The notes under the pieces are model-generated. The model searched no databases, had not been told where the DNA came from, and saw only the letters and a list, made by a program, of their open reading frames with translations. A program made the position numbers and the translations under genes. A stretch of DNA of 64,000 nucleotides. It comes from Escherichia virus KFS-EC3. Where the stretch lies: sequence record MZ065353.1, one strand, 5' to 3'. Shown in pieces: positions 60,245 through 61,397 of this stretch (positions are counted from its first letter, which is position 1; the number at the start of each line of letters is the position of its first letter).

Positions 60245-60699
60245 TGGAATTTAAAGACTTTTCAACGGGTCTTTATGTAGCAGCTAAGTTTTCAGAATTA
60301 ACACTTGATGCGCTGGAAGAACTCCAGCGCTCTTTACGTGTTCCTAATCCAGTTCCTAGAGAAAAAATTCATTCGACCATATGTTATTCAAGAGTAAATG
60401 TTCCGTATGTTCCATCAAGCGGAAGTTTTGAAGTAGCTTCTTCTGGACATTTAGAAGTATGGAAAACACAAGATGGATCGACTCTTGTACTTGTGCTAGA
60501 TTCTGAATATCTGCGCTGCCGACACATGTATGCGCGGGCACTAGGTGCTACACATGATTTTGATGATTACACACCGCATATAACATTGTCTTATAATGTT
60601 GGGCCCTTATCATTTAGCGGTGATGTACAAATTCCGGTCGTATTAGATCGTGAATACAAAGAGCCTCTTAAACTCGATTGGGCAGATGATTTAAAATAA
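60244..60699 (+). CDS. 57B: gp57B
   Basis: 151 aa, start overlaps 57A stop. Confidence 0.7.
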
Positions 60700-60712
60700 T
60701 TTCACAAAGTTG

Positions 60713-60744
60713 TTTACATGCTGATGAGGTAGTGATACTATTAT
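60713..60744 (+). promoter_or_regulatory. T4-type early promoter inside a stem-loop (PeSL-like cassette)
   Basis: GTTTAC, 17 nt, then ATACTATTAT; inverted repeat TGATGAG/CTCATCA. Confidence 0.5.
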
Positions 60745-60771
60745 CTCATCAAAATTAATTAGGAAAATAAA

Positions 60772-61029
60772 ATGAAAACTTTCAAAGAGTTTGCTACAAA
60801 AACCACTATCACTGAATCTTCTCACGGTATGGAAGTAAAGCTTGGAATGGCTTTAGCTGAAGCTGAGCGTCTTTTCTCTCGTATTAAAGAACTTGCTGCT
60901 GCAGTCGATCCTTCATCTTTTAAAGGAGACCAAACTAAAGTTAAAGCACTTTTAGCGTTATGCTCCGATGCAGGAGAAATTGCTAAAAATGGTTCTAAGA
61001 TGAAGAAACGATTAGAAGATTTAAAATAA
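60772..61029 (+). CDS. internal-protein-like protein with capsid targeting sequence
   Basis: 85 aa; N-terminus MKTFKEFATKTTITE resembles T4 internal protein leaders (MKTYQEFIAE) with an I-x-E protease site. Confidence 0.6.
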   Translation: MKTFKEFATKTTITESSHGMEVKLGMALAEAERLFSRIKELAAAVDPSSFKGDQTKVKALLALCSDAGEIAKNGSKMKKRLEDLK

Positions 61030-61042
61030 TTTCACAAAGTTG

Positions 61043-61073
61043 TTTACACAGGGTTTTAGTAGTGATACTATTA
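61043..61073 (+). promoter_or_regulatory. T4-type early promoter inside a stem-loop (PeSL-like cassette)
   Basis: GTTTAC, 17 nt, then ATACTATTA; preceded by the same 31-bp junction as the 60713 copy. Confidence 0.5.
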
Positions 61074-61106
61074 CCCTATCAAAACAAAATCAAATGGAAA
61101 TCAAAA

Positions 61107-61339
61107 TGAAAACTTTCAAAGAGTTTATCGCTGAATCTTCTGATGTAAAAGTTGAGTTTATTTACACTGGCAAGAAAGATAAAATGGGTGAAATGCCTTA
61201 TGGAGTTCTTCGTGATGCATTAGATAATTTCGGTCAACTCGCCGCAGAAGATTACGGTGATAAAATTGTTGTTACTGGTCCTGCTGCAGTTATTGAAAAA
61301 TGGGCAGCAGAAAATAAATCAATTTTTCGTAAAAAATAA
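61107..61339 (+). CDS. internal-protein-like protein with capsid targeting sequence
   Basis: 77 aa from the ATG at 61107 (MKTFKEFIAESSD...); track ORF starts upstream inside the promoter. Confidence 0.6.
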
Positions 61340-61371
61340 GTTTACTTTTAGATGGGGTAGTGATACTATTA
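61340..61371 (+). promoter_or_regulatory. T4-type early promoter inside a stem-loop (PeSL-like cassette)
   Basis: GTTTAC, 17 nt, then ATACTATTAT, then GAGGAGAA RBS. Confidence 0.5.
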
Positions 61372-61397
61372 TCTCATCAACTACTGAGGAGAATAAA

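Follow-up and report, generated by a model that had tools for sequence, protein, structure and literature searches.

The internal-protein open reading frames (ORFs) of the T-even phages are said to be bordered on both sides by elements of about 70 bp, each combining a T4 early promoter with an overlapping inverted repeat; these were reportedly described by Repoila, Tétart, Bouet and Krisch (EMBO J, 1994). Here we analyse the corresponding locus of Escherichia virus KFS-EC3 (sequence record MZ065353.1), in a stretch of 64,000 nucleotides that is called the window throughout. The gene order is 57B (Acb1) – cassette – Ip5 – cassette – Ip6 – cassette – tRNA.4, and the three cassettes are very probably T-even type promoter early stem-loop (PeSL) elements, at which promoter-equipped gene modules recombine. 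The feature is already known: what the elements are, where they lie and what they are proposed to do has been on record since 1994, with more added in 2010 and 2014, and the window holds an ordinary T6-type (Ip5 plus Ip6) arrangement. Locus (57B to the tRNA region), element type and leader are the same as in the elements of 1994, and nothing substantive differs. The gene names are shared as well, Ip5 and Ip6 being annotated in T6 and GiZh at 97-98% identity, and the sole peculiarity of the window is that cassette 3 has hybrid arms, GATGGGG/TCTCATC. What is added here is confirmatory detail only, namely in-register junctions, arm-mismatched chimeras, one G.U-dependent stem and hairpin-free controls of the same core.

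PeSLs were defined, and given this name, in phages RB49 and phi1, with promoter activity, terminator activity and mini-circles all shown (Arbiol 2010, PMC2839356); mini-circles have been shown for these two phages only. The same paper, citing Repoila 1994, treats the T-even elements as analogs, not homologs, of the RB49/phi1 PeSLs. Common to both are a composite promoter and stem-loop between small variable genes, a stem placed over the -10 element (in a common subclass of the RB49/phi1 PeSLs), G-T pairs, and the proposed role of linkers for modular shuffling. They differ in that the RB49/phi1 PeSLs have near-perfect sigma-70 boxes and stems with G/C runs that were shown to terminate, whereas the T-even elements follow the T4 early-promoter consensus and have weaker, AT-rich stems (PMC2839356). 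PeSLs with the consensus TTTACW-N17-TAYWAT were later described in T4 and Yersinia phage PST by Comeau, Arbiol and Krisch (2014, PMC4122927), who linked them, again citing Repoila 1994, to the T-even internal-protein locus. The consensus, the AT-rich upstream sequence, the ribosome-binding site and ATG at the 3' end, the variable stems and the occurrence in hyperplastic regions next to indels are the same in the window. The PST stems lie just upstream of the promoter, however (Figure 3 legend, PMC4122927), while the arms in the window straddle the -10 element.

An exact search of the plus strand with the pattern GTTTAC-N17-ATACTATTA returned exactly three matches, at 60712-60743, 61042-61073 and 61340-61371. 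With a tolerance of up to two mismatches, 100 dinucleotide-preserving shuffles averaged 0.37 matches and never reached four. The published T4/PST consensus likewise matches the three cassettes only in the 64-kb window. A repeat finder reported a 71-nt family at 60684, 61014 and 61312 (identity to the first copy 100%, 83% and 69%) and a second family that spans the ribosome-binding site, the ATG and the first codons. A preliminary description of this DNA had placed three copies of a 32-bp module at 60713, 61043 and 61340. The threefold exact pattern stands; the first two coordinates are one off unless counted from TTTAC, and the repeat is longer than 32 bp. The cassettes are delimited as follows.

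60684-60792, plus strand: cassette 1, found through the repeat family, the pattern matches, a promoter-like scan and the exact blocks; an AT-rich, UP-like region with the 57B stop, -35 element TTTACA at 60713-60718, TGn at 60733-60735, -10 element TACTAT at 60736-60741, AGGA at 60761-60764, ATG at 60772 and the first seven leader codons.
61014-61126, plus strand: cassette 2; Ip5 stop at 61027-61029, -35 element TTTACA at 61043-61048, TGn at 61063-61065, -10 element TACTAT at 61066-61071, ATGs at 61094 and 61106.
61312-61403, plus strand: cassette 3; GTTTAC at 61340-61345, TGn at 61361-61363, -10 element TACTAT at 61364-61369, GAGGAG at 61386-61391, ATG at 61398.

Cassettes 1 and 2 are alike over their whole length of about 110 bp (60684-60792 and 61014-61126), at roughly 83%. 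This similarity includes a 31-bp exact block, GATTTAAAATAATTTCACAAAGTTGTTTACA (60688-60718 = 61018-61048), which holds the TAA stops of both 57B (60697-60699) and Ip5 (61027-61029), a 15-bp exact core, GTAGTGATACTATTA, and a 24-bp exact block, AAAATGAAAACTTTCAAAGAGTTT (60769-60792 = 61103-61126), which holds the ATG and the codons that start the leader. The cassette before internal-protein genes thereby also carries the first codons of the leader MKT(F/Y)(K/Q)EF. Cassettes 1 and 3 share a 25-bp exact block (60728-60752 = 61356-61380), and exact sharing between cassettes 2 and 3 is confined to the 15-bp core. Upstream of its GTTTAC, where the match starts, cassette 3 is AT-rich and unlike the 28-nt flank (60684-60711) common to cassettes 1 and 2. 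The 31 bp that had been said to precede the first two copies are indeed identical and span the upstream stop codon, but they overlap the module, as they include GTTTACA, rather than merely preceding it.

Each copy contains TTTACA or TTTACT, a 17-bp spacer, TGA and TACTAT, that is, an extended -10 promoter with a good -35 box, and a generic sigma-70 promoter-like scan flagged cassettes 1 and 2, with TG ahead of the -10 element. The TAA stops of the preceding genes (the third, that of Ip6, being at 61337-61339) lie 0-15 nt ahead of GTTTAC, in AT-rich sequence, and copies 1 and 2 have their AT-rich 31-bp block upstream, where an UP element would sit. As previously noted, each copy is followed by a ribosome-binding site and an ATG (AGGA with ATG at 60772; GGAA with ATG at 61106, and a further in-frame ATG at 61094; GAGGAG with ATG at 61398). 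With the standard spacing from -10 element to start applied to the sequence, transcription would begin near A60748, A61078 and A61376. T4 early promoters are UP/-35/TGn/-10 promoters with additional conserved positions (PMC2988021), and the cassette promoters are probably of this strong sigma-70/T4-early type. The T4 cassette that separates 57B from ipI has 94.5% identity with cassette 1, and in the supplement of a time-resolved T4 transcriptome the RNAs of 57A and 57B are listed as 'middle', those of ipI and trna.4 as 'early' (PMC9697503). This change of RNA class across a homologous cassette is consistent with initiation at the cassettes. A literature search for mapped 5' ends of the ipI promoter found none, only transcript time-classes.

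All three copies can form a hairpin.

60722-60751, plus strand: hairpin 1, TGATGAGGTAGTG, loop ATAC, TATTATCTCATCA; 13 pairs, three of them G.U, with the arms flanking the -10 element.
61050-61077, plus strand: hairpin 2, outer stem AGGGT/ACCCT and inner stem TAGTA/TACTA, in a register unlike that of hairpins 1 and 3.
61351-61378, plus strand: hairpin 3, GATGGGGTAGTG, loop ATAC, TATTATCTCATC; its stability needs G.U pairs.

The left arm lies in the spacer between the -35 and -10 elements and the right arm immediately 3' of the -10 element in all three cassettes, so that the putative transcription starts would fall inside the 3' arms. One inverted repeat per copy had been reported before, and this is confirmed, except that the arms flank the -10 element instead of enclosing the whole 32-bp module. 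Hairpins 1 and 3 have 12-13 pairs, G.U included. As RNA (RNAfold), the predicted energies are -14.8 kcal/mol (z = -2.2) for hairpin 1, -17.5 kcal/mol (z = -2.65, in an 80-nt context) for hairpin 2 and -13.8 kcal/mol (z = -2.2) for hairpin 3. As DNA they are -5.4 (z = -2.5), -6.8 (z = -3.15) and -2.3 kcal/mol (z = -0.9), the last with a different fold. The hairpin, if it matters, would more likely act at the RNA than at the DNA level, because hairpin 3 does not exceed background as DNA while hairpins 1 and 2 do. A DNA cruciform is disfavoured for cassette 3, whose hairpin is unstable as DNA; one may form at cassettes 1 and 2. Compared with GiZh, T6 and ASO78A, the arms of hairpin 3 are a hybrid of the left arm usual before tRNA.4 and the right arm of cassette 1. 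No Rfam 15 family was found over 60500-61700, where the single hit was a chance-level snoRNA match of 22.5 bits against a gathering threshold of 55 bits.

A hairpin was present in 27 of 30 distinct homologous cassettes from 15 loci, with energies from -7.7 to -18.5 kcal/mol. Its arms vary by genus (GATGAGG/CCTCATC, ATAGGGT/ACCCTAT, AGGATGAT/ATCATCCT in a Mosigvirus and GGGTT/AACCC in a Klebsiella phage), and three different registers occur across the loci. The best-sampled register comprises 14 distinct sequences, in which 94% of cells pair, versus 35-73% when the partner is slid. The identical promoter core without a hairpin (-0.6 to -3.6 kcal/mol) was found at nine sites in two IMG/VR contigs of about 159 kb, apparently Gelderlandvirus genomes; the pattern scan of IMG/VR yielded 17 stretches and served as a control, not as a census. 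The core is also free of a hairpin at several other early promoters of the phage vB_Eco_Solly (Solly). Since arms and registers differ across genera and the same core occurs hairpin-free, the stem appears to be a separable addition on a subset of early promoters.

The genes between and beside the cassettes are all on the plus strand. Between 60000 and 62400 they comprise 57A (60002-60244), 57B, a 72-bp gap, an 85-aa ORF, a 76-bp gap, a 77-aa ORF, a 58-bp gap, a 61-aa ORF and then small ORFs.

60244-60699, plus strand: gene 57B, the Acb1 anti-CBASS protein (Pfam PF23474 Acb1, E=2.6e-60; gp57B in GiZh, T6 and T4), the conserved left anchor, whose last four codons and TAA stop lie within cassette 1.
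60772-61029, plus strand: Ip5, internal head protein, 85 aa (phrog_3499 'internal head protein', E=1.2e-49), with the leader MKTFKEFATKTTITE; annotated as Ip5/ipV in T6, GiZh and ime09.
61106-61339, plus strand: Ip6, internal virion protein, 77 aa (phrog_8111 'internal virion protein', E=6e-51), with the leader MKTFKEFIAE; annotated as Ip6/ipVI in T6 and GiZh, its TAA stop abutting the GTTTAC of cassette 3.
61398-61583, plus strand: tRNA.4, predicted membrane protein, 61 aa (phrog_1692; Trna.4 in T4, T6 and GiZh), the conserved right anchor.

Ip5 and Ip6 both start with MKTFKEF, followed within a few residues by an (I)xE site; they thus show the features of internal proteins, a leader MKT(F/Y)(K/Q)EF…(I/L)xE joined to an unrelated small mature part. 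Among eight proteins of this kind (seven sequence types), similarity is limited to the leader, i.e. the first 7-26 residues. A capsid-targeting leader and processing by the prohead protease have been described for T4 internal proteins (PMC9026906), and the predicted N-termini of Ip5 and Ip6 fit such a capsid-targeting sequence and processing. IPI inhibits a type IV restriction enzyme, and IPIII is required on certain hosts (PMC9026906, PMC9391042). Several database records label 57B (Acb1) as 'RNA ligase' or hypothetical, and the variable internal-protein array lies directly downstream of this counter-defence gene. Ip6 has an in-frame ATG four codons upstream (MEIK-MKTFKEF; 61094-61108), the long form being annotated in Solly and the short one in GiZh and T6; the longer form would move the capsid-targeting leader off the N-terminus.

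The window belongs to a Tequatrovirus. Its locus segment matches 774 phage records and is 99.5% identical to that of Escherichia phage vB_Eco_Solly and 97-98.5% identical to those of GiZh and T6. We aligned 14 related 57B-to-tRNA.4 loci to the window by BLAST and found eight different gene contents, with zero to five or more unrelated internal-protein genes.

slur04 and Klebsiella phage Lion_ER11: no gene between the anchors.
ime09: Ip5 only.
ECO07P5: Ip6 only.
T4 and SA21RB: IpI.
T6, GiZh, ASO78A and the window: Ip5 and Ip6.
BF15 and W143: a 90-aa and a 102-aa protein.
UFV-AREG1: IpI, the 90-aa and 102-aa proteins and Ip8 (four).
CM8: Ip5 and IpI (duplicated) and Ip8 (five including the duplication).
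Mosigvirus (phage 55): an IpI-like protein and another protein.

A cassette precedes every gene in these loci, and the junctions of deletions and replacements relative to the window fall inside cassettes. The locus of ime09 stays colinear with the window as far as 61082 and picks up again at 61357, with 24 nt of overlap, so that the loss is exactly 298 bp, the spacing from cassette 2 to cassette 3. In slur04, the end of 57B is joined through a cassette-2-like core to the tRNA.4 leader. The T4-type IpI replacement begins at 60792, where the shared leader codons end, and itself ends in a cassette (cassette 3 for the window segment). Comparison among relatives, which the preliminary description had proposed as a check, thus revealed gain, loss and replacement of internal-protein genes with junctions inside the repeats. 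The PeSL identification made there is also borne out by the promoter consensus, the AT-rich upstream region with its stop codon, the stem-loop overlapping the -10 element, the ribosome-binding site with ATG and the hyperplastic location.

Each cassette is in itself a mosaic, in which one of a few left halves and one of a few right halves are combined around a constant core. Chimeric cassettes in BF15, UFV-AREG1 and W143 combine the left arm AATAGGG with the right arm TCTCATC and have almost no hairpin (-1.9 to -2.6 kcal/mol). In addition, IMG/VR contig IMGVR_UViG_2706796299_000001 contains, on its minus strand near 59, a slipped tandem duplicate of TACTATTACCTCATCAA, which comprises the -10 element and the right arm. 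This duplicate resembles the 'degraded' PeSLs that Comeau et al. 2014 (PMC4122927) ascribed to recombinational slippage. Such arm-mismatched chimeras and the slipped duplicate are the scars that would be expected of crossovers within the core.

Two further observations concern phages of this set. Many Klebsiella T4-like phages conserve the cassette and the start of tRNA.4 at about 90% (Lion_ER11, 1536-1600), with 57B followed directly by the tRNA.4 homolog and with the arms GGGTT/AACCC. The second internal-protein locus of T4 (ipII/ipIII) appears to be empty in Solly, whose genome is the closest to the window: a lone promoter/hairpin cassette lies there in the mere 60 bp that separate lysozyme e from denV (OY720021.1, 63018-63078).

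Several points weigh against recombining PeSL cassettes as the explanation. Promoter activity in KFS-EC3 is deduced from the consensus and from the T4 transcript classes. Part of the similarity between copies could reflect selection for an extended T4 early-promoter consensus, not exchange; for instance, an unrelated gene at 2372 is likewise preceded by CACAAAGTTGTTTACA. Random recombination followed by selection would leave junctions between genes, too. The CM8 locus contains a 974-bp tandem duplication (Shigella phage CM8 locus, 1130-2110; a 3' fragment of 57B, Ip5 and IpI) whose junction lies outside the cassettes, where DNA immediately downstream of a cassette meets internal 57B sequence at 4 bp of microhomology; it is the product of either illegitimate recombination or an assembly artefact. 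The hairpin of cassette 3 is unstable as DNA, and the existence of three natural cassettes without a hairpin indicates that it is dispensable in some contexts at least. Covariation in the best-sampled stem register is weak, with double-sided changes at two pairs and a score reached by 27 of 500 shuffles, and is no more than suggestive of a selected stem; the case for such a stem rests mainly on the differences in arms and registers across genera and on the hairpin-free promoters of the same core. Finally, the hairpins are AT-rich and have no T-run, and none passes a terminator-like scan.

We considered the possibility that the copies are three independent strong early promoters, one per gene, whose resemblance comes from the unusual length of the consensus for T4 early promoters (UP, -35, TGn, -10); gene swaps would coincide with them only incidentally, because viable rearrangements must end between genes. 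The additional conserved positions of T4 early promoters (PMC2988021), the recurrence of the -35-proximal string at 2372, the nine sites with the same core in the apparent Gelderlandvirus contigs and the CM8 rearrangement, which bypasses the cassettes, are all in line with this idea. Yet cassettes 1 and 2 are identical at 31 of 31 and 24 of 24 positions, in blocks that take in the final codons of two proteins that are unrelated (…DDLK*, …EDLK*) as well as the coding leader. Moreover, ime09 has lost exactly one cassette spacing, in register, and the arm-swapped chimeras and the slipped partial duplicate are direct scars of exchange in the core. We therefore regard independent promoters as a quite improbable explanation.

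It might also be argued that the repetition of cassettes and leaders goes back to old tandem duplications, in which one ancestral internal-protein gene was copied and the mature parts of the copies then diverged past recognition under arms-race selection, with no shuffling. The genes of the array do share orientation, size range and N-terminal leader, and weak similarity extends past the leader in some pairs, e.g. 32% over 50 aa between the 102-aa protein and Ip6. However, the non-coding cassettes are 83-100% identical next to coding DNA that cannot be aligned, which would need ongoing gene conversion, that is, recombination at the cassettes anyway. Furthermore, the same genes occur in different combinations and orders in closely related genomes whose flanks are more than 95% identical. 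Duplication without shuffling is accordingly very hard to credit.

A different question is whether the stem-loops are the functional core, acting as intrinsic terminators that close each upstream gene and make each gene an isolated unit, in the sense of composite promoter-terminator PeSLs. We hold this to be possible but doubtful. The stem-loops of RB49/phi1 PeSLs cut lacZ read-through about as much as rrnB T1 does (PMC2839356), and the depositors of ASO78A and SA21RB annotated the hairpins as rho-independent terminators (WebGeSTer, TransTermHP). Against this, the sequences that follow the three stems, AAAATTAA, TCAAAACAAAA and AACTACTGAGG, are A-rich without a T-run, a scan of 59800-62400 found zero terminator-like sites, and the stems are AT-rich with G.U pairs; T-even stems are, according to Arbiol et al. 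(PMC2839356), weaker and different. Rho-independent termination was dropped as the default reading, as no G+C-rich stem followed by a T-run was seen. T4 internal proteins, moreover, accumulate late according to the supplement of PMC9697503, and the nearest late-promoter motif on the plus strand, the sole one nearby, is at 59639, upstream of 57A. Should late synthesis of internal proteins rely on transcripts that read through from this motif, they would have to pass the cassettes, a route that strong termination would block; the hairpins could then hardly be strong terminators.

On the interpretation that we favour, PeSL cassettes bordering exchangeable modules, host RNA polymerase would start at each cassette right after infection, about 7 nt past the -10 element. 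Because the putative start lies inside the 3' arm, the cassette's own transcript would have an unstructured, AU-rich leader and no hairpin. The full hairpin would form only in read-through RNA from upstream, where it could serve as a transcription attenuator, or else make the upstream message more stable or insulate it. The comparison of relatives shows that the near-identical direct repeats (15-31 bp exact; about 110 bp at about 83%) can serve the homologous recombination of the phage as crossover points, with the outcome that unrelated internal-protein genes are lost, gained and swapped, each module with its promoter, while the anchors stay in place. Such module exchange alters the set of injected anti-defence proteins.

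The array invites comparison with integron gene cassettes (attC), an analogy drawn by Arbiol et al. (PMC2839356). Both consist of small unrelated adaptive genes in the same orientation with short imperfect inverted repeats, and their content varies among close relatives. The array in the window differs in that it has no integrase or site-specific recombination, each cassette has its own promoter, and exchange presumably proceeds by general homologous recombination. An unlikely but more far-reaching proposal is that the cassettes are part of an integron-like system which captures injected anti-defence proteins next to Acb1, the core and hairpin being recognised by a phage factor or forming mini-circles, and the G.U-dependent hairpin insulating new genes at the RNA level. 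Mini-circles from PeSL-PeSL exchange at this locus would have predicted sizes of 330, 298 and 628 bp.

Two further cassettes of this kind lie in the window's other early region.

2372-2440, plus strand: a cassette with CACAAAGTTGTTTACA, N17 and TAGTAT, and a hairpin CTCCTTTGTG...CAAAGGAG.
2811-2879, plus strand: a cassette with GTTTAC, -10 element TATTAT, an 8-bp G+C-rich stem GGTACAGG/CCTGTACC around the -10 element, a ribosome-binding site and ATG 2877; hairpin energy -16.1 kcal/mol as RNA and -8.4 as DNA (z = -5.9).

Both lie downstream of genes that we take, from the T4 map, to be cd, 31 and rIII. In the first, whose promoter is at 2381, the ribosome-binding site of ORF 2438-2806 falls within the hairpin's 3' arm, CAAAGGAG. 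This is the geometry of the T4 translational-masking hairpins (e, soc, 49 and I-TevI; PMC3014915), in which the ribosome-binding site is in the 3' arm; read-through RNA of ORF 2438-2806 would be masked, and RNA from the cassette's own promoter would not. The hairpins of the internal-protein locus resemble the masking hairpins in that a promoter is embedded in the hairpin, internal starts lack the 5' arm and read-through RNA folds. They differ in that all three end 10-20 nt before the ribosome-binding site, with no masking, and in that the embedded promoter is early, not late.

The strong consensus for cleavage by RegB is GGAGRAYARAA (PMC3014915). The leaders of tRNA.4, ORF 2438 and ORF 2877 carry a perfect match to it, GGAGAATAAAA (61388-61398, 2425-2435 and 2865-2875); those of Ip5 and Ip6 (60762-60772 and 61096-61106) have GGAA instead. 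Avoidance of RegB sites was dropped as a hallmark of internal-protein genes, as other phages place GGAG modules before such genes. The late-promoter motif TATAAATA is strongly over-represented in the window (23 occurrences versus 8.9 expected), including two closely spaced or overlapping divergent pairs (56633-56655 and 17835-17846).

The fact that module bounds coincide with promoter cassettes aids annotation, as small ORFs between them can be recognised as internal proteins and annotated "terminators" as promoter cassettes. Cassette-bounded modules also point to natural insertion sites for the engineering of capsid-delivered proteins. In little space, the locus illustrates how an exchangeable repertoire of injected counter-defence proteins is maintained by a virulent phage.

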